Origin: Candidatus Gottesmanbacteria bacterium
GTDB lineage: Bacteria > Patescibacteriota > Microgenomatia > JAMCYU01
DNA length: 64,000 bases
Reading direction: 5' to 3'
NCBI GenBank assembly: GCA_043801155.1
Contig: JAZDMI010000021.1
Location: 2,683 to 66,682 of the forward strand
In this document: in pieces, positions 14,726 through 27,056 of the stretch
Position numbering within the stretch: the first letter of the stretch is position 1
How the letters are laid out: each line of letters opens with the position of its first letter
The notes under the pieces: generated by a model
Told to the model about the DNA's origin: nothing
The model's input: the letters and a program-made list of their open reading frames with translations, nothing else
Database searches by the model: none
Program-made: the position numbers and the translations under genes

Positions 14726-14887
14726 TTATTGTGAAGTATCATATTCTGCAGGTTCAATTAGCGGTCTTTTTCCCTGAGGAGACGGAGAAAAAAATAACGT
14801 CAGTATCATCATGATGACACTAAAAGAAATAATCATTAATGATACAACGATAACTATTTTCTTATTGTTCTCAAAAAATTCGTTCAT
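14726..14887 (-). CDS. hypothetical 53-aa single-pass membrane protein
   Basis: Below the ORF-track length cutoff. ATGA overlap with the stop of the pilin-like gene. Hydrophobic core IVIVVSLMIISFSVIMMILTLFF. Confidence 0.4.
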   Translation of the reverse strand: MNEFFENNKKIVIVVSLMIISFSVIMMILTLFFSPSPQGKRPLIEPAEYDTSQ

Positions 14888-15447
14888 AATTGGAATTCAC
14901 CGGTAACCCAGTCGTATTCGTTTTGCCAATTGCGGCCGGAACAACTCCAGCCTGGACTTTGTGGATGGGGTCGGGCAGTTGTTTCCATTTCTCTTATCCC
15001 TAAAACATAAAAAGTACCTCTAGCTGAAGGGCAACCATAACTGCCGGCAACGTAACGATAATAATTAAGATTATAGCATACTGATGTTCCTCCAAATGGA
15101 TCAGAAGCGTTAATTGAGGGATCGGTGATATTTGTTTTAAGATCACCCGAATCTTGAAGCGTCTTGATAAACGAAATTCCACATCCGGCTACTTCCCAAC
15201 CACCGCAAGGACTAGTACAGGTTGAATTGCCTCCGGAATTAGGCGGCGGGAAATTGCCATTAAGGATGCGATAACTACTTAGTGCTAGTCTTATTTGTGC
15301 TGTAAGTGATAATCTTTGAGCATCACGTGCCTTTTTAATTTTGCTGATCGGATTGATGGCCACCATTAATCCCGTAGATAATATACTTATAACCGCTACG
15401 ACTACTAGTAGTTCTATTAACGTAAATCCATTAGATAACTTGGACAT
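14884..15447 (-). CDS. type IV pilin / pseudopilin-like protein (prepilin N-terminal methylation motif)
   Basis: GFTLIELLVVVAVISIL class III signal peptide. Confidence 0.75.
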   Translation of the reverse strand: MSKLSNGFTLIELLVVVAVISILSTGLMVAINPISKIKKARDAQRLSLTAQIRLALSSYRILNGNFPPPNSGGNSTCTSPCGGWEVAGCGISFIKTLQDSGDLKTNITDPSINASDPFGGTSVCYNLNYYRYVAGSYGCPSARGTFYVLGIREMETTARPHPQSPGWSCSGRNWQNEYDWVTGEFQL

Positions 15448-15475
15448 ATTTTCAGTATATACTATAATTTTATTA

Positions 15476-16567
15476 ATGAAAAGATTTTTTTATACATCCA
15501 TTTTTATCCTTATCTGTTTCGATATGCTGATTATTTTTTATTTGATAAGTATTCAACCTAAAGAAAATCAAAAGAAAATAGTTCCATTACAGGTCAATCT
15601 AAAAAAATCTTTAGAAGTAGATATTACTAATAAAAGTATTAACGTTAGTGATATCTTTAAATATCAAGATCCTGATTTTTCAGGTTATAATCCCAATGAA
15701 ATTGTGCTTTTAGCTACCGGTGATGTAATTCTAGCCAGAAGTGTCAATAGCTTAATGGTTTCGAAAAATAATTTTCTTTATCCATTTGAGAAGACCGCTA
15801 ATTTTTTAAAAAATTCTGACATAACTTTTATAAATCTGGAATCGCCCCTAATTCCCAATTGTGCAACCACAGTCGAAGGTATGGTTTTTTGTGGTAGTGA
15901 GAATGCCGTTGCAGGATTAGTTTTTAGTGGCGTTGACGTAGTCAGCATTGCTAATAACCATATGGCTGATCAAGGAGAGGATGGGATAAATAATACAACT
16001 AATATCCTGATGAAAAATAATATTGCCGTAACTGGTAACGGCAATCCGGCAATCTTAACGGCCAAAGGAAAAAAATTTGGATTTTTAGGGTACAACGATA
16101 TCAGTGAAAGATATGACTTATTGCCTAAGCCAGACGATATTCTTTTACAAAAAGATATTTATAAATTAAAACAAAAAGTGAACTATGTGATTGTTGCTTT
16201 TCATTGGGGGGTTGAATATACAGCCAGTCCTTCAGCCAGACAAGTCGAATTAGCCCATATGGCCATTGATAACGGTGCTGATTTGGTCATCGGTAATCAT
16301 CCTCACTGGGTGCAGGGAATTGAACAATACGAAGGGAAATTAATAACCTATGCCCATGGTAATTTTGTTTTTGACCAAATGTGGTCGCCAGAAACCAGGG
16401 AAGGCGTAATCGGTAAATATGTTTTTGGTAACAATGGTTTAAAGTCTGTTAATTTTTACCCAATCATTATTGAAAATTATGCTCAGCCAAGATTTGCCCA
16501 AAAAGAAGAAGCCGTCAAGATCTTGGAAAAAATGAAAGCCACATCGCCCATAGTCAAATCTCCCTAA
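15476..16567 (+). CDS. CapA/PgsA-family metallophosphatase-like protein (capsule synthesis family)
   Basis: CapA-like blocks (SIANNHMADQG, VAFHWGVEY, GNHPHWVQG). ATG 15476 avoids the overlap with the pilin gene. Confidence 0.65.
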   Translation: MKRFFYTSIFILICFDMLIIFYLISIQPKENQKKIVPLQVNLKKSLEVDITNKSINVSDIFKYQDPDFSGYNPNEIVLLATGDVILARSVNSLMVSKNNFLYPFEKTANFLKNSDITFINLESPLIPNCATTVEGMVFCGSENAVAGLVFSGVDVVSIANNHMADQGEDGINNTTNILMKNNIAVTGNGNPAILTAKGKKFGFLGYNDISERYDLLPKPDDILLQKDIYKLKQKVNYVIVAFHWGVEYTASPSARQVELAHMAIDNGADLVIGNHPHWVQGIEQYEGKLITYAHGNFVFDQMWSPETREGVIGKYVFGNNGLKSVNFYPIIIENYAQPRFAQKEEAVKILEKMKATSPIVKSP

Positions 16568-16586
16568 CTTTGTTACACTTAACTGT

Positions 16587-19028
16587 GTGTATAAAGGACT
16601 TTCAGAAAACGAAACAGCTATTTTAAAAAGTAAATTTGGCGAGAATTCTCTTCCGGCAAAAGAGGCCACCAGTCCGTTAACTATTTTTATCTCTCAATTT
16701 AAAAGCCCACTAATTTATATCCTTTTAATTGTTGCCTTAATTTCTTTTCTATTTGCTCAATACTTTGATAGTCTGTTAATTTTTGCCGTGATATTGATTA
16801 ATGTTCTGATGAGTTTTTTCCAGGAATATAATGCCCAAAAAACCTTAGCCGCTCTTCAACAGGTCCTTAAACCTGAAGTCTTAGTAATAAGAGATGGCCT
16901 AAGAAAGCGTATTGAAGCAAAGTATCTATTACCCGGTGATTTAGTTGTTTTGGGAGCTGGTGATCGGATTCCGGCTGATGGGAAGCTGATTGAAGGGACC
17001 AGTTTCTTGGTTAACGAGGCAATTCTAACAGGAGAAGAAGAAGGAGTTAATAAGACAATCGAGGACAAGAGAAATTTACTTTTTATGGGAACAAGTATTC
17101 TTTTTGGTCAGGGAATTATGGAAGTCATAACGATCGGACAAACTACTCAAGTTGGAAAAATAGGTCAAAGTCTAACCGAGATTAAAGAAGAACCAACACC
17201 TCTTCAGAGACGACTAACACAATTTTCCAAATCTCTGGCTAAAGTTATCCTTGGTTTGTGTTTCTTTATTTTAATTATCGGAGTATTAAGTGGAAAAGAT
17301 TTCTGGATGATGCTTAAAACCTCGATTATATTATCGGTGGCCGCCATTCCCGAAGGATTACCGGTGGCGATTACCGTTATTTTGGTATTAGGCATGAGAA
17401 AAATACTAAAAAAACAGGGATTGGTTAAAAAGTTGCTGTCAATCGAAACTTTAGGTTCAACCTCAGTGATTTGCACTGATAAAACCGGGACACTGACCGA
17501 AGGAAAAATGAAGGTGGTTGAAACCGATTTTGTCGATCAGACCAAAGGAGTTTTAGCTTTAATGTTGGCCAATTATCAAAGGACTAATATCGAAATTGCT
17601 TTTTGGGATCATGCCCAAAGTAAAAAACATTTACTTCCCGCAGAAATTTTAACGTCGTTGACTAAGACATACGAGGAACCTTTTGATAGTGAAAAAAAAT
17701 ATACTCTGGTAATAAATAAAATGGCTGATAAAGAAACAGCCTTTATGGTAGGGGCAGCAGAAATTGTCCTAAATTTTTGCCGGCAAGACTCTTCTTCAAC
17801 AAAAAAAATTATCGCCATGATTGAGGATTGGGCTGACCGCGGATTAAAAGTTGTCGGATTGGCTTTTAAAGAAGACGGTAATTTGAAGGAAAAAAATAAT
17901 TTTTCTTGGCTGGGGCTTGTTGGTATTGAGGATCCCCTCCGGCAGGAAGCAAAAGAAGCGATTATCACAGCCCAAAAGGCCGGAATAAAAATAAAAATCG
18001 TTACCGGCGACTTACGGAAAACGGCTGAAAGAATCGCTAAAAATTTAGATTTACAGTTTTCCCCTGATCAAATTTTAGAAGGCAAGGAATTGGAAACGCT
18101 TACAGATTTAGAAATTAATAAAAGGATTAATAATATCGTTTTGTTTACCCGGGTTACTCCTCATCAAAAGTTAAAGATTGTCGAAATTTTACAGGCACGG
18201 GGTGAAGTGGTGGCGATGACCGGCGATGGGGTTAATGATGCGCCGGCTCTTAAAAAGGCCGATATCGGCGTTGTTGTCGGTACCGGATCGGATGTGGCGA
18301 AAGAAGCCGGAGATCTGATACTTCTGGATAATAATTTTAAAACAATCGTCTCTGCTTGTGAGGAAGGCAGATTGATTATTGCTAATCTGAAAAAAGTTAT
18401 CGGCTATGTTTTATCCAATTCGTTTTCCGAGATTATCTTAATTTTTGGGGCTATTATTACTCAACTACCAACACCATTAACCGTGGTTCAAATTCTTTGG
18501 ATTCATCTTATCTGTGACGGACCGCCGGACATTCTTTTGAGTTTTGAACCAAAAGAAAATGGCTTGATGTTACAAAAACCCAAAGACTTGAAAAACGATA
18601 TTATTCTTAGCCGAACAATGAAAGTGTTGATATTAACCGTCAGTTTGATATCCGGTTTAGGTTCACTGCTTGTTTTCAAATATTTTCTGCAAACCGGAAA
18701 TAATTTAACTATAGCCAGAACGATGATTTTTACCTTTTTATCTTTGGTCAGTCTGGTTTACATTTTTTCCTTTAAAAACCTGCATAAATCAGTTATTAAA
18801 ACTGAGAATTTTTTTGCGAATAAATACCTATTTTTGGGGGTATTGTATGGATTAATCCTAATTTTAGCAGCCGTTTATTTACCCTTTTTTAATCTGATAT
18901 TAGGAACAACTCCTCTTAATATTAAACAATGGTTATTAATCATCAGCCTTAGCTTGGCTATAACCGTAACCATTGAACTATTTAAATTGACCAATATTTT
19001 TCAAGAAAAAATAACCAGGACGGGTTAG
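16587..19028 (+). CDS. P-type cation-transporting ATPase (P2-type, Ca2+/Mg2+-like)
   Basis: ICTDKTGTLT, TGDGVNDAPALKKADIG, PEGLP. GTG start. Confidence 0.9.
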   Translation: MYKGLSENETAILKSKFGENSLPAKEATSPLTIFISQFKSPLIYILLIVALISFLFAQYFDSLLIFAVILINVLMSFFQEYNAQKTLAALQQVLKPEVLVIRDGLRKRIEAKYLLPGDLVVLGAGDRIPADGKLIEGTSFLVNEAILTGEEEGVNKTIEDKRNLLFMGTSILFGQGIMEVITIGQTTQVGKIGQSLTEIKEEPTPLQRRLTQFSKSLAKVILGLCFFILIIGVLSGKDFWMMLKTSIILSVAAIPEGLPVAITVILVLGMRKILKKQGLVKKLLSIETLGSTSVICTDKTGTLTEGKMKVVETDFVDQTKGVLALMLANYQRTNIEIAFWDHAQSKKHLLPAEILTSLTKTYEEPFDSEKKYTLVINKMADKETAFMVGAAEIVLNFCRQDSSSTKKIIAMIEDWADRGLKVVGLAFKEDGNLKEKNNFSWLGLVGIEDPLRQEAKEAIITAQKAGIKIKIVTGDLRKTAERIAKNLDLQFSPDQILEGKELETLTDLEINKRINNIVLFTRVTPHQKLKIVEILQARGEVVAMTGDGVNDAPALKKADIGVVVGTGSDVAKEAGDLILLDNNFKTIVSACEEGRLIIANLKKVIGYVLSNSFSEIILIFGAIITQLPTPLTVVQILWIHLICDGPPDILLSFEPKENGLMLQKPKDLKNDIILSRTMKVLILTVSLISGLGSLLVFKYFLQTGNNLTIARTMIFTFLSLVSLVYIFSFKNLHKSVIKTENFFANKYLFLGVLYGLILILAAVYLPFFNLILGTTPLNIKQWLLIISLSLAITVTIELFKLTNIFQEKITRTG

Positions 19029-21460: not shown

Positions 21461-22654
21461 ATGGCAGATGAAGCCAAGAAAAAATACGAGAGGAGTAAAC
21501 CTCATCTTAATATCGGAACTATTGGACATGTTGACCACGGTAAAACTACTTTAACCGCGGCCATTACTCAAGTTTTGGCAAAAAAAGGTTTTTCCAAAGC
21601 TTTGAAGTATGATGAAATTGATAACGCTCCGGAGGAAAAAGCCCGGGGATTGACGATTGCTATTTCTCATGTTGAGTATGAAACGGAAAAACGCCACTAT
21701 GCTCATATTGATTGTCCGGGACACGCCGATTATGTTAAAAACATGATTACCGGCGCCGCCCAGATGGATGGAGCCATATTAGTTGTCTCCGCTCCGGATG
21801 GACCGATGCCGCAAACCAGAGAACATGTACTTTTAGCCAGACAAGTTAATATTCCGGCGATGGTGGTATTTTTAAATAAAGTTGATATGGTTTCGGATCC
21901 GGAACTTCTTGATCTGGTCGAAATGGAAATCCGCGAGTTGTTAAAGAAATACAAATTTGACGGAGATAAAGTACCCATCATCCGCGGTTCAGCCCTAAAA
22001 GCCCTTGACGGAGACGCCAAGGCTGAAGAAGCAATCATGGAATTGATGAAAGCAGTTGATGAATATATTCCGACACCAACTCGAGACCTCGATAAACCAT
22101 TCTTAATGCCAATTGAAGACGTATTCTCAATCAAAGGCCGAGGAACGGTTGTTACCGGCCGGGTTGACCGGGGAAAGGTCAAAGTCAACGAGGAGCTAGA
22201 GATTGTTGGTATTAAAGCCACGACCAAAACAGTGGTTACCGGTGTTGAAATGTTTAGAAAAACTCTTGATGAGGGACAAGCCGGAGACAATATCGGAGTT
22301 TTGCTTCGGGGTGTTGAAAAAGACGATGTCGAGCGAGGCCAAGTCTTGGCCAAGCCGGGATCAATTACTCCTCATACAGAATTTGAGGCCGAAGTTTATG
22401 TTTTAACCAAGGATGAGGGAGGCCGTCATACGCCTTTCTTTACCGGTTATCGGCCGCAATTTTATCTCAGGACAACTGATGTTACCGGTGAAGTAACCTT
22501 ACCCAAGGGTGTGGAAATGGTTATGCCCGGTGACAATACCAAGATGATGATTAAACTGATTGTACCGGTAGCAATTGAAGAGGGTTTACGATTTGCTATT
22601 CGTGAAGGTGGTCATACCGTCGGCGCCGGAGCAGTTAGTAAGATTATTGCCTAA
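21461..22654 (+). CDS. tuf: elongation factor Tu
   Basis: [25 protein letters not shown]. Confidence 0.99.
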
Positions 22655-22703
22655 TTAGATATTGATATTAGGAATTAGGAATTGGTAATTAAGAATTTAT
22701 TTT

Positions 22704-23012
22704 ATGCCAAAAGGCAGAATCCGTGTACGTTTAAAAGCTTATGACAGTCGGGTTTTAGATGCTTGCTGTCAGCAAATCCTTGATACGGCCGTACGGACCG
22801 GCGCTAAGGTCGTGGGTCCGATACCACTGCCAACAGACAAATCCCGTTATTCTGTTCCCAAATCCCCGTTTACCGACAAAGACAGCCGCGAAGATTTCCA
22901 AATAAGAACACATAAAAGATTAATTGATATCCTTGAGCCAACCGATAAAACCATTGATCAACTGGCCCACCTCGATCTACCTGCAGGAGTTGACATTGAA
23001 ATAAAGATGTAG
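22704..23012 (+). CDS. rpsJ: 30S ribosomal protein S10
   Basis: [10 protein letters not shown]..., 102 aa. Confidence 0.97.
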
Positions 23013-23313
23013 ATCCCCACACTAATTTCCTATGTTTTATGTATACATTTTAAAAAGCAAAAAAGATGGAAATTTATACACAGGATCAACCAATGATTTA
23101 AAACGCCGTATTGAAGAACATAATTCAGGTTTAGTTTATTCGACGAAAAACCGAAAGCCATTTAAGTTAATATACTATGAAGCATATAGTGATGAAAGTG
23201 ATGCTAGAAATAGAGAGCACAATTTAAAGTTAAGAGCAAAAGCCCTAGGTCAATTAAAAAGAAGGATAAAGGAAAGTCTATCTAAATAATATAAATATAA
23301 TTAGTGTGGGGAT
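23013..23313 (+). mobile_element. 301-bp GIY-YIG mini-cassette bounded by perfect 15-bp terminal inverted repeats
   Basis: ATCCCCACACTAATT (23013-23027) and its exact reverse complement AATTAGTGTGGGGAT (23299-23313). It fills the gap between the rpsJ stop and the next ATG. Confidence 0.6.
23032..23289 (+). CDS. GIY-YIG nuclease superfamily protein (YhbQ/UPF0213-like)
   Basis: FYVYILKS...GNLYTGSTNDLKRRIEEHN. 85 aa. Confidence 0.8.
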   Translation: MFYVYILKSKKDGNLYTGSTNDLKRRIEEHNSGLVYSTKNRKPFKLIYYEAYSDESDARNREHNLKLRAKALGQLKRRIKESLSK

Positions 23314-23315
23314 AA

Positions 23316-23663
23316 ATGTCTGATATACAAAAATTAACCCAGCAAATTCTAAAATTTCGCAATAAAAGGGATTGGAAGCATTTCCATTATCCTAAGGACA
23401 TGGCCATTTCTTTGGCACTGGAGGCGGCCGAGGTTCTGGAACATTTTCAATGGAAAACCCAGGAAGAAGTTGAAGCGTATCTGAAGACGCATAAAACTCA
23501 TATCGCTGACGAACTGGCCGATGTTTTGTGGTGGGTGCTATTAATGAATCATGATTTGAATATTGATGTGATGAGGGCTTTCGATAAAAAATTAAAAATC
23601 AACGAAGAAAAATATCCGGTTGATAAAGCCAAGGGTACACATAAAAAATATACCGAGTTGTAA
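23316..23663 (+). CDS. MazG-like nucleotide pyrophosphohydrolase
   Basis: LALEAAEVLEHFQW and ELADVLWWVLLM helices with acidic metal ligands. Confidence 0.7.
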   Translation: MSDIQKLTQQILKFRNKRDWKHFHYPKDMAISLALEAAEVLEHFQWKTQEEVEAYLKTHKTHIADELADVLWWVLLMNHDLNIDVMRAFDKKLKINEEKYPVDKAKGTHKKYTEL

Positions 23664-23761
23664 GATGATATCTTTTATTTCTCAATAAATACTCTGACTT
23701 TAACTTCAATATTTGACCTCGGTGTTAAAATAGTAATTATTAGAATTATTAGGAGGCATAT

Positions 23762-23956
23762 ATGAGATATGAAAATAATTGTATGCATCCTGCCATTGTT
23801 TATATTCCGGATCTTAGGCCAGGGTCATATGATGCTAATGGTTTAATGGTTGGGTCACTGAAACATATTCCAAAAGAAAAAATTCAAAAGACAGATGTTT
23901 CAGCTAAATATAGACGAATAGGGCCTCCGATTCGTATTGTTGCCAAAGGGTATTAA
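23762..23956 (+). CDS. hypothetical protein
   Basis: Strong RBS TAGGAGG 7 nt upstream of the ATG. 64 aa. Confidence 0.45.
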   Translation: MRYENNCMHPAIVYIPDLRPGSYDANGLMVGSLKHIPKEKIQKTDVSAKYRRIGPPIRIVAKGY

Positions 23957-23983: not shown

Positions 23984-24358
23984 CTACTCTTTGTTTTTTT
24001 CTAATTCGTCTTTAATTTGCGGAGCGATATTATCCAAGAAAATCTGATCAACAAGTTCTTCGGTTATATGAGCTTCTCTTGGCCCAAAATGCTGCATAAA
24101 AACATGATGTTGCCCTATTTTATCCGGACTTAATTGTATTTGACAATAAGTATTGGGGAAGCTGCGGTGGATAAAATTACAAATGATTGTTCCACTTTTA
24201 AGCATAACTGTTTCCCATACAGAAATTTGATTTGGTTTCAAATCTTTATGTTTTGGAACTGGAATATCCTCTCCGACGAGCAGATAAACATCAGGCCAAT
24301 CTAAAGGATTGTACTCATTAAGAGAAATTGGTTGTCTTTCTTGTTTAGAGTTATTCAT
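23984..24358 (-). CDS. hypothetical protein (placed behind the repeated 5' module)
   Basis: 124-aa ORF. Its ATG lies 2 nt after an 11-codon remnant uORF. Confidence 0.5.
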   Translation of the reverse strand: MNNSKQERQPISLNEYNPLDWPDVYLLVGEDIPVPKHKDLKPNQISVWETVMLKSGTIICNFIHRSFPNTYCQIQLSPDKIGQHHVFMQHFGPREAHITEELVDQIFLDNIAPQIKDELEKNKE

Positions 24359-24360
24359 AT

Positions 24361-24455
24361 TTAAACTTGTTCTCGAGCTTCAGGATTTATTGACATAAGA
24401 AAGATATTCTACACATTCAAGTTATAATATACAAATCCTGACTAATTCCCACATC
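24361..24455 (-). repeat. copy 1 of a ~95-nt promoter plus 5'-coding module (includes remnant uORF 24361-24396, MSINPEAREQV*)
   Basis: About 85% identical by eye to 25943-26041. On the minus strand it reads TTGTAT-N17-TAGAAT-N9-ATG. Confidence 0.7.
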
Positions 24456-24550: not shown

Positions 24551-25057
24551 ATGTCTAAAACAAAAACAAATGAAATTGTTTATGCATTTATAGATAGCCA
24601 GAATCTCAATTTAGGAGTCAGGAGTCAAAATTGGATTTTAGATTTTGACCGTTTTCGTGTTTATTTAAAAGAAAAGTACGGAACAAAGAAAGCATTTTTG
24701 TTTATAGGTTATGTTGAAGGCAATCAAAGCTTATACACATATTTACAAAAATCCGATTATATATGCATATTTAAGCCTACGTTGGAACTTAATAAAAATA
24801 AAAAAGTAAGAATAAAAGGTAATGTTGATGCTGAATTAGTGCTTCATTCGATGATAGAGTATCCCAATTATGATAAGGCTATAGTTGTTTCCGGTGATGG
24901 AGACTTTCATTGTTTGGTGGAGTATTTAAAGGAGAAAAATAAGCTATTGAAAATAATTGTTCCAAATAGAAAATATTCTTCCCTGCTTAGAGAATTTAGT
25001 AACTATATAGTTAATATAGGGTTGATGCGAAGCAAGTTAGAATTGAGAAAGAAATGA
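24551..25057 (+). CDS. NYN domain (LabA-like) putative ribonuclease
   Basis: AFIDSQNL...VVSGDGDFHCLVEYLKE. Confidence 0.7.
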   Translation: MSKTKTNEIVYAFIDSQNLNLGVRSQNWILDFDRFRVYLKEKYGTKKAFLFIGYVEGNQSLYTYLQKSDYICIFKPTLELNKNKKVRIKGNVDAELVLHSMIEYPNYDKAIVVSGDGDFHCLVEYLKEKNKLLKIIVPNRKYSSLLREFSNYIVNIGLMRSKLELRKK

Positions 25058-26112: not shown

Positions 26113-26198
26113 CGTTAATTAGACCCATATTACGGTTATATTAACGGTATATTGACAAAATATCGTTAATATGTTAACATATTGTGATGAGATTAACG
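26113..26198 (+). promoter_or_regulatory. Fic promoter with candidate operators
   Basis: TTGACA at 26152-26157. Perfect 16-bp palindrome AATATGTTAACATATT at 26168-26183, abutting the GTG start. CGTTAAT/ATTAACG inverted pairs at 26113-26146 and 26164-26198. Confidence 0.5.
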
Positions 26199-27056
26199 CG
26201 GTTACAGGTGATTTCTGAACTGTTTGCCCAGTACCAGACAAAAAAAATAAACAAAGAATCTCTTCTTTCTATGGTCGATGATGTGGAAATTGCAGAGAGG
26301 GTCTACAACTCCAATGCCATAGAAAACTCGACACTCACCTTGCCCGAAACGGAAAAAATCCTGCTTCAGCTTGAAGTGAATAGGCATATATCGCTTAGAG
26401 AAGTTTTTGAGGCAAAAAATTTAGCCCAAGTCTACAACTATATTAAAAATACTGCCCCTCAAAAACCACTTTCCCTAGATATGATTTTATTACTTCATAA
26501 AATCCTGCTTACCAATATCCGTGATGAAGTTGCAGGACAGTTTCGTACGGGAAACGAAATGGTGCGGGTAGGAAATCACATCGGCATACCCTCGGAATTT
26601 ATAAGTCAAAGGATTCAAGAAATGCTCGTTCAATATAATTCAGACATGGAAATTTCCTTTATTCATAAAATTGGCCGTTTACATGCGGAGTTTGAAAGTA
26701 TTCACCCTTTTATTGACGGAAATGGCAGGATCGGACGAGTTCTTAATAACTATTTACTTATCCGTGAAGGATTTCCTCCGATTATCGTTAGAAATAAAGA
26801 TAAAGAAACTTATTATGATGCCCTGCGTTCATATGACACTTCGCATAATTTTAAACCAATGATGCGCATAGTTGAGTTAGCTGTTTTAGAATCTTTTCAT
26901 AAACGTCTGGCTTACCTTGAGGGACAGCGGATAATTCCTCTTACTGAATATGCGGCTACTCAAAAAAGATCTTTCCATACTCTTTTAAATTCAAGCCGTC
27001 GTCAAACTATTCCTGCTTTTCGCGAGAAAGGCGTCTGGAAAATCGGAGTAAAATAG
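26184..27056 (+). CDS. Fic/DOC family protein (canonical AMPylase-type motif, class II inhibitory helix)
   Basis: HPFIDGNGRIGR, N-terminal SNAIEN (S/TxxxE[G/N]). Confidence 0.85.
   Translation: MMRLTRLQVISELFAQYQTKKINKESLLSMVDDVEIAERVYNSNAIENSTLTLPETEKILLQLEVNRHISLREVFEAKNLAQVYNYIKNTAPQKPLSLDMILLLHKILLTNIRDEVAGQFRTGNEMVRVGNHIGIPSEFISQRIQEMLVQYNSDMEISFIHKIGRLHAEFESIHPFIDGNGRIGRVLNNYLLIREGFPPIIVRNKDKETYYDALRSYDTSHNFKPMMRIVELAVLESFHKRLAYLEGQRIIPLTEYAATQKRSFHTLLNSSRRQTIPAFREKGVWKIGVK

Follow-up and report, generated by a model that had tools for sequence, protein, structure and literature searches.

What is a 301-bp stretch of DNA with perfectly complementary ends and a single small nuclease gene inside, wedged between a ribosomal protein gene and its downstream neighbor? 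The question arises in a 64-kb window of the Candidatus Gottesmanbacteria contig JAZDMI010000021.1, the whole stretch of DNA analyzed here, where a cassette at 23013-23313 separates rpsJ from a gene for a MazG-like protein (coordinates without a locus number are positions in this window). We find it rather probable that this is a selfish, palindrome-bounded GIY-YIG nuclease cassette and one of a widespread family. Comparison of the loci shows a discrete unit of ~300 bp that has been inserted at, or precisely lost from, many unrelated sites, usually in sense orientation in operons. The family is apparently undescribed and looks like the smallest self-contained mobile element in bacteria.

The cassette between rpsJ and mazG

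The original prediction had the left arm begin right after the rpsJ stop codon and its reverse complement end 2 nt before the next ATG, with nothing but an 85-aa GIY-YIG open reading frame (ORF) in between, and all of these coordinates were confirmed. The left arm, ATCCCCACACTAATT, occupies 23013-23027 on the plus strand and starts with the first base after the rpsJ stop; it contains the family core at 23014-23023 (TCCCCACACT; consensus CCCCCACACC). Its exact reverse complement, AATTAGTGTGGGGAT as read on the plus strand, forms the right arm on the minus strand at 23299-23313, with the core at 23303-23312. Over the 271 nt from arm to arm the plus strand holds one ORF of at least 40 aa (23032-23289), the sole cargo, which encodes the single-domain GIY-YIG nuclease of 85 aa (Pfam PF01541, E = 1.5e-18).

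Both host genes lie on the plus strand and almost touch the cassette. Upstream, rpsJ (ribosomal protein S10, 22704-23012; Pfam PF00338, E = 2.1e-34) ends in the stop codon TAG at 23010-23012. This codon lies within the left flanking 4-mer TAGA (23010-23013, plus strand), which is the stop plus one A and which the family analysis identified as similar to a target-site duplication of the pattern TNNA. Downstream, the gene for the MazG-like nucleotide pyrophosphohydrolase (23316-23663; Pfam PF12643, E = 4.2e-19) is separated from the right arm by two bases, AA, so that the ATG begins at 23316. The right flanking 4-mer TAAA (23313-23316, plus strand), identified in the same way, has as its last A the A of this ATG. 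The window thus reads ...AAG ATG TAG A/TCCCCACACTAATT TCCT ATG...(85 codons)...TAA TATAAATAT AATTAGTGTGGGGA/T AA ATG TCT..., where slashes set off the flanking 4-mers. The left arm and the GIY-YIG ATG are only 4 nt apart, which leaves no room for a promoter of the gene's own. The G+C content falls from ~0.44 in rpsJ to ~0.29-0.32 across the cassette.

The arms were the only perfect 15-bp inverted repeat with a spacing of 50-1000 nt in the window. On its own this statistic is not significant, because at least one such repeat occurred in 20% of 150 simulated windows (first-order Markov) and because the 15-mer has no other copy in the window. The repeat is nevertheless real: it sits exactly on the borders of the genes, and homologous loci conserve it. 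The terminal stem was present in the predicted minimum-energy fold, both as DNA and as RNA (z = -3.55 for RNA), and an Rfam search of 22600-23800 at a permissive threshold returned chance-level matches only.

Conserved ends and covarying arms

The GIY-YIG protein had 1555 homologues at E <= 1e-5, the best of them 70-82% identical and 83-86 aa long; it was 100% identical to a protein from a 'Candidatus Gottesmanbacteria' metagenome-assembled genome (MAG). Exact-match look-ups of this protein and of the rpsJ product gave no record. A scan of one genome per species yielded over 585 loci, of which we retained the best 80 (L001-L080, with homologues 60-78% identical). These 80 came from Patescibacteria of many classes and from MAGs labelled with other taxa, namely Omnitrophota, Margulisiibacteriota, Elusimicrobia, Phycisphaerae, Bdellovibrionales, Thermodesulfobacteriota and Gammaproteobacteria. 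The original prediction had proposed to look for other copies with the same ends and for an empty site, and both searches were positive: homologous GIY-YIG genes with these ends were found in dozens of species-level genomes, and the empty site is described below.

A perfect inverted repeat of 11-23 nt bracketed the ORF in 56 of the 78 testable loci, and its core was nearly always (A)CCCCCACACC(A/T)A.... In about 55 of the 80 loci this core stood on the plus strand upstream and on the minus strand downstream of the ORF, and most of the others carried a variant core. The conserved ends of the family can be written CCCCCACACC...GGTGTGGGGG, and the elements measure 281-329 bp, which to our knowledge is shorter than any insertion sequence. 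The right arm often starts at the stop codon (TAG-GTGTGGGGGT), and in several loci the left arm takes in ATG TTT.

The complementarity of the arms is itself maintained. In an ungapped end alignment of 52 gene-bearing elements, 84% of a 24-pair stem was paired. Cells in which both sides had changed numbered 186, versus 78 in column shuffles (0 of 500 reached 186) and 51-83 when the partner column was slid. Departures from the commonest pair on one side only, a class that includes G-U, were far rarer than two-sided changes. From these stem data it follows that the arms keep their sequence over the outer 10-11 bp, and that over the inner 5-12 bp they vary yet remain Watson-Crick complementary. 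The scarcity of one-sided relative to two-sided changes fits a constraint at the level of DNA, perhaps of both strands, and not of RNA alone.

Nine loci (L012, L017, L018, L031, L042, L043, L057, L069 and L078) formed a subfamily with the arms CCATAACGAGTTT and AAACTCGTTTGG. Here, the left arm carried a conserved single-base bulge, CCATAACG being paired against CGTTTGG, which suggests that the stem retains a feature of its structure beyond the sequence alone.

Flanking direct repeats and the orthologous junction

Directly outside CCCCC...GGGGG we observed a direct repeat of 4 nt with the pattern TNNA (for example TAAA, TTTA, TTGA or TAGA) or CNNG (CGTG, CCTG, CAAG and others). Left and right 4-mers were identical in 31 of 78 pairs and matched at three of four positions in 23 more, whereas random re-pairing gave a mean of 5.9 identical pairs and a maximum of 13. 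The 4-nt register alone works; other registers gave almost nothing. Among the gene-bearing copies the repeat was perfect in 17 of 52. The middle NN was identical in 35 of the 78 pairs (8.7 expected) and reverse-complementary in 4; since identity so far exceeds reverse complementarity, the 4-mers are a direct duplication, and an extension of the palindrome was rejected as their source. Fourteen distinct 4-mers occurred, and copies within one locus differed in their 4-mer (L040, L045, L062, L022).

The insertion point of the window's own copy could be compared with relatives. The order fusA-tuf-rpsJ-mazG is the same in them, tuf being 81% identical at the nucleotide and 93-96% at the protein level. 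In six loci (L088-L093) an orthologue of the MazG-like protein, 77-78% identical, is encoded directly after rpsJ without a GIY-YIG gene. The junction was empty in L088 and L089, where it reads AAG ATG TAG ATT ATG TCC with neither element nor motif (TAGATTATG; 'ATGTAGATTATG'). In L090-L093 only a remnant of the left arm was left, AAA ATG TAA ACCCCCACACCCAA ATG GCA (L090:2987-3000), which is either a footprint of excision or deletion or a half-site. One orthologous junction thus exists in three states, full, remnant and empty. In L090-L093 the annotated mazG start is two codons longer (MANSD...). A functional tie of the element to its MazG-like neighbor was rejected, since the MazG-like gene adjoins rpsJ without the cassette in these relatives.

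Gene-less, nested and clustered versions

The same ends with the same flanking repeats also occurred without the gene, either as bare hairpins (for example L041 2574-2602, L045 2408-2435 and L070 1727-1758) or as elements of 60-140 bp that resemble MITEs (miniature transposable elements with inverted repeats; L004 301-441, L014, L040, L062, L022 and L053). The short elements as deletion derivatives of the gene-bearing ones found no support, only L053 giving a marginal match. In L044:2876-3282 a GIY-YIG ORF was broken after ATGTTTTACGTGT by an element of ~110 bp with the related ends ACCCGCCCACCAAT...ATTGGTGGGTGA. GTGT stands on both sides of this inserted element, and the arrangement looks like a nested insertion with a short duplication of its own.

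Elements and bare hairpins tended to cluster or to stand in tandem, and GGGGGTAAACCCC junctions recurred (L050:~380-440; L023:2983-3269 and 3344-3629; L010:39-250; L013:2910-2994; L009 upstream of 3001). The end of a gene-bearing copy abuts the start of the next one in L050, two diverged gene-bearing copies lie 75 nt apart in L023, and L010 holds a MITE-like tandem.

Insertion places

The neighbors of the elements have little in common. Among 56 neighboring ORFs we counted 105 Pfam families, none of which appeared more than twice, and no transposase gene recurred among them. Orientation, on the other hand, was strongly biased: 45 of 52 upstream and 43 of 47 downstream neighbors were co-oriented with the nuclease gene, and 11 elements started 0-1 nt past the upstream stop codon. 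One identical protein, P0112, stood in a wzm/wzt context in all 24 contigs examined, which belong to one well-sampled population; with the same flanks throughout, this context gave no sign of recent movement.

At five loci the start of a tRNA gene (Ile, Ser, Ala, Tyr, Tyr) lies 2-5 nt inside the terminal G-run of the element. The tRNAs start at L022:1998, L027:3275, L052:3277, L061:3274 and L072:3269, and the right ends of the elements lie at L022:2000, L027:3279, L052:3279, L061:3276 and L072:3270. The left flank at these loci is GGG(G) plus the same 4-mer, as in GGGGCGTG/CCCCC...GGGGG/CGTG TGGCTGAG. Judging from this arrangement, insertion seems to have hit the 5' acceptor end of the tRNA, which the element rebuilt with its own Gs.

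The GIY-YIG protein and related systems

The protein scored 67.3 bits against PF01541 (cut-off 22.6), the domain covering residues 1-70 of 85. In 25 aligned family members 30 columns were invariant, including Y5, Y16, G18, R26, H30, E62 and N64. Entropies of 0.85, 0.62 and 1.47 bits at the three codon positions show that the protein is under purifying selection. The closest solved structures were the UPF0213 proteins BH0048 (PDB 1zg2, E = 3e-9) and EF2693 (1ywl, E = 1.2e-5). None of the PADLOC defence models matched the GIY-YIG or the MazG-like protein. The viral contigs of IMG/VR held no close relatives and gave only partial N-terminal GIY-YIG matches, so that carriage by phages is unsupported.

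The original prediction had spoken of a minimal mobile or homing cassette. Its first half is supported by the shared ends, the direct repeat and the empty site. The second is not: the protein has 85 aa in one domain, lacks a DNA-binding domain and reached 22.7 bits against the NCBIfam intron-endonuclease model TIGR01453 (cut-off 56.05), and a homing endonuclease is therefore unsupported. Like the free-standing and intron-encoded homing enzymes (Seg proteins, I-TevI), the family has the GIY-YIG catalytic domain, lives selfishly and inserts between genes. These, however, have at least 200 aa with a C-terminal DNA-binding domain, and neither terminal inverted repeats nor target duplications.

A literature search for an earlier description of the CCCCCACACC motif or of the family found a single relevant paper, on the Ssn nucleases. 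Ssn/NTS is thus the closest characterized analogue. Ssn is a single-domain GIY-YIG protein of ~94 aa (cd10448) that binds the NTS/SRM hairpin in single-stranded DNA (ssDNA) and cuts beside it site-specifically, even when the two halves of the hairpin are on separate oligonucleotides, and acts neither on double-stranded DNA nor on RNA. Ssn modulates transformation, and copies of the repeat that it targets flank the ssn gene; the authors remark that NTS-ssnA-NTS resembles an insertion sequence, and argue that such small nucleases are useful as ssDNA tools (Chenal et al. 2025, Nat Commun, PMC11893778). Like Ssn/NTS, the present family has a single-domain GIY-YIG protein of ~85-97 aa whose gene is bracketed by an inverted palindromic motif that is also found elsewhere in the genome, and like Ssn it is wedged into host operons. 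The latter holds for our Ssn-type control (L081:1379-1887, Azospirillum lipoferum plasmid AZO_p3), where the gene lies between sufB and sufC and has on each side two SRM hairpins (CGTCATCCCCGCGAAGGCGGGGATCCAG) of opposite orientation. A second SRM-flanked control came from Shinella (L083).

The two systems also differ. The Ssn motif is CGTCAT-CCCGCG..., that of the window family CCCCCACACC. The pattern HGTCWYN(0-2)YYVSBRHN(0-5)WNVSBRGN(0-2)RNCYNB for the SRM had 0 matches in the window and 6 in the 422 kb of L001-L080, and 4 matches each around the gene in L081 and L083, which served as positive controls. The published SRM was thus rejected as the repeat of the cassette. Ssn has complete hairpins on each side of its gene, whereas here the gene sits in the 'loop' of one split palindrome. 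The family also lacks the C-terminal W..W..NP.W extension of Ssn, to which it is ~40% identical over three quarters of the length. Direct repeats of 4 nt and an empty site, both present in our family, do not appear in the accessible parts of the Ssn paper (PMC11893778).

Profile comparisons pointed in the same direction. The family scored on average 56.9 bits on a hidden Markov model of UPF0213 and 47.5 bits on an Ssn-type model, a stand-in for cd10448 made from four alphaproteobacterial Ssn-like proteins, two of them SRM-flanked. In a neighbor-joining tree of few sequences of ~90 aa it formed its own clade beside UPF0213. These sequence comparisons lean against membership in cd10448. The region 'YTK.RRP..L' is common to the family and to UPF0213 (YazA/YhbQ/BH0048). 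Genes of the YazA type, however, stand in a conserved trmN6-yazA-rsmI order with overlapping genes, whereas the family has no conserved neighbors; terminal palindromes occur in the family, and YazA loci were not searched for such ends.

Other systems share part of the architecture. REP/REPIN-RAYT systems too combine one small gene with short inverted palindromes, gene-less copies and doublets, and RAYTs, presumed to act on DNA hairpins, likewise persist for long at low gene copy number, single-copy and vertically inherited examples being on record. A RAYT, however, is an HUH/Y1 transposase, and the protein described here a GIY-YIG hydrolase; REPs bear GTAG or CGTC as a conserved tag and lack a target duplication, whereas our elements have CCCCC/GGGGG and a 4-nt direct repeat. 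No high-copy expansion was seen in the sequence examined. With MITEs and insertion sequences (IS) the family has in common terminal inverted repeats, short direct repeats, gene-less derivatives, nested insertion and presence or absence at orthologous sites. Unlike IS, it encodes no DDE, HUH, serine or tyrosine transposase, its only ORF being the GIY-YIG gene, and its arms are perfectly complementary and covary where typical IS ends are imperfect. Integron cassettes have a promoterless ORF followed by one attC site with both halves 3' of it, and form tandem arrays beside intI; the family differs from them in having arms on opposite sides of the ORF, no GTTRRRY core and single copies scattered among unrelated genes, no search aimed at intI having been made.

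Surroundings of the cassette

G+C is low over the first few kb downstream of rpsJ, a region with MazG-like, NYN, Fic and GNAT genes. The NYN protein (24551-25057) matched the PADLOC NYN model (E = 3.7e-10), and the Fic-domain protein (26184-27056) the PADLOC candidates PDC-S04 and SoFic (E = 3.7e-36 and 2.1e-29). Just downstream of the MazG-like gene, an AT-rich inverted repeat of 26 nt with 81% complementarity (23668-23693 and 24382-24407) brackets two small unannotated ORFs, 23762-23956 on the plus and 23984-24358 on the minus strand. This repeat may be due to chance.

Further away, rpsJ is separated by ~34 kb and other genes from the cluster rplC-rplD-rplW-rplB-rpsS-rplV-rpsC-rplP, which starts at 57437. 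In L088 and L090 it is likewise mazG and not rplC that follows rpsJ. Given this distance and the same arrangement in relatives, the S10 operon is split in this lineage. The usual order rpsL-rpsG-fusA-tuf is also broken, by three ORFs between rpsG and fusA (14884-19028; 187 aa on the minus strand, 408 aa and 813 aa).

Discussion

How might such a cassette move and be tolerated? We propose that the window copy inserted at the TAGA that ends rpsJ, in sense to the operon, where it would therefore be transcribed by read-through. Transcription from the host operon is expected because only 4 nt separate the arm from the ATG here, and because the arm overlaps the ATG in other copies. By analogy with Ssn/NTS and RAYT/REP, the nuclease would recognize the stem that its own ends form once the DNA is single-stranded or extruded, and may cut at the base of the stem, at TNNA/CCCCC and GGGGG/TNNA, as Ssn does beside its NTS and RAYT at a REP. 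Host repair or ligation would then complete excision or insertion and give rise to the 4-bp duplication. In the read-through mRNA, the stem of 15-23 bp could loop out the ORF and cover or abut its start codon, which would keep translation of the nuclease low. It would also bring the rpsJ stop and the mazG start together and so limit polar damage to the host operon. Such a role of the stem in RNA is plausible from the predicted fold. That the GIY-YIG protein is itself the mobilizing enzyme we regard as less likely than not. An autonomous DNA transposon whose only protein, a GIY-YIG nuclease of 85 aa, acts on a hairpin or cruciform of its own ends is likewise a possibility on which we would not insist.

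Several observations weigh against this picture. No further copy of the 15-mer was found in the 64 kb with up to 3 mismatches allowed, nor was there a second copy of the family motif in the window. The flanking 4-mers of the window copy, TAGA and TAAA, match at three of four positions only; the remark in the original prediction that no clean target-site duplication was seen is correct for this copy. Base-level comparison with the empty site of L088 fits a 4-bp duplication and none alike, and gain and loss at the rpsJ site cannot be polarized because the three lineages stand at about the same distance from one another. No two elements were more than 80% identical at the nucleotide level: the copies are old and show no sign of recent bursts. 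Near-identical multiple copies within a genome were not found in the window and the loci compared, the window holding one copy, two copies in one MAG (L022 and L072) being 74% and the tandem copies in L023 62% identical. With a top identity of 80%, no recent intragenomic transposition was found. The interiors of the short versions are not recognizably derived from the gene, so that an unlinked enzyme could move the ends. Nuclease activity and transposition of this clade are both inferred by us from analogy. Finally, GIY-YIG enzymes hydrolyze DNA and we know of none that carries out strand transfer, which leaves the joining step unexplained.

The age and low number of the copies might speak for a different kind of system, one that serves its host. 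In this scenario, an Ssn-like nuclease has been domesticated and kept, for example to restrict or process ssDNA in natural transformation or replication, the arms are copies of its recognition palindrome, and the cassette stems from an ancient insertion and is no longer mobile. Ssn itself, a nuclease that modulates transformation and whose gene is flanked by target repeats (PMC11893778), is a precedent, as are the single-copy, vertically inherited RAYTs with their REPINs. The purifying selection on the protein, the old, diverged copies and the low copy number would all be expected. On the other side stand presence, remnant and absence at one orthologous site among genus-level relatives, wholly unrelated neighbors between loci, closely similar proteins in very different phyla and the direct repeats around gene-bearing copies, perfect in 17 of 52. 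We consider domestication rather unlikely as the whole explanation. The points raised against it show repeated insertion, and a host benefit on top of this is compatible with them.

Less likely still, the cassette could be non-autonomous cargo, with ends moved by an unlinked transposase or recombinase as for MITEs and the GIY-YIG gene as a frequent passenger, for example a toxin or a defence nuclease. The versions that have the same ends with no cargo or with unrelated interiors of 30-120 nt agree with this idea, and so does the fact that GIY-YIG enzymes are not known to transpose DNA. Duplications of 4 bp are typical of some DDE transposase families. Yet about 52 of the 80 best homologues carry the ends, in an element without room for anything else, and the conserved residues are kept across phyla. 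Furthermore, a defence role found no PADLOC match, and no transposase gene recurs among the neighbors. A mere passenger seems improbable to us.

We give very little credence to a purely RNA-level explanation, in which the arms pair over a long range in the mRNA, as a helix that controls nuclease translation or as an RNase III processing site, and have no role as DNA ends. The stem does appear in the predicted RNA fold (z = -3.55), the arms covary strongly, and at several loci the ATG and the first codons fall within the left arm and the stop codon within the right. The flanking 4-nt direct repeats and the empty orthologous site are, however, signatures at the DNA level, the same palindromes occur without any ORF, one-sided pair changes (the class that includes G-U) are far rarer than two-sided ones, and no Rfam family matches. 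A role in RNA may well coexist with the one in DNA. A chance inverted repeat beside an ordinary small gene, which the 20% of simulated 64-kb sequences with such a repeat might have suggested, can be dismissed as already refuted, since the same core brackets homologous ORFs in dozens of unrelated genomes and the arms covary.

Conclusion

The selfish cassette that we favor accounts for hundreds to thousands of ORFs annotated as 'GIY-YIG nuclease family protein' that, in Patescibacteria and other uncultured phyla, break up operons and lie against tRNA genes. It does little damage there, fitting with hardly a base to spare between the stop codon upstream and the start codon downstream, with a stem that can loop the element out of the transcript. 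Should the nuclease act on the palindrome at the ends of its element, GIY-YIG nucleases would have paired with a cognate DNA hairpin in a second, independent clade besides that of Ssn/NTS. This would also be the first such pairing with direct genomic evidence of insertion, in the form of duplications at the flanks, an empty site, a remnant and derivatives without the gene. If the element is autonomous, prokaryotic mobile elements would gain a new mechanistic class, and its ~290 bp would make it the smallest of the self-contained ones, with 4-bp target duplications at TNNA/CNNG and the ability to enter tRNA 5' ends and rebuild them. The family would allow one to probe whether a mobile element can live on a bare hydrolytic nuclease of 85 residues, and it would supply many new small sequence- or structure-specific nucleases.

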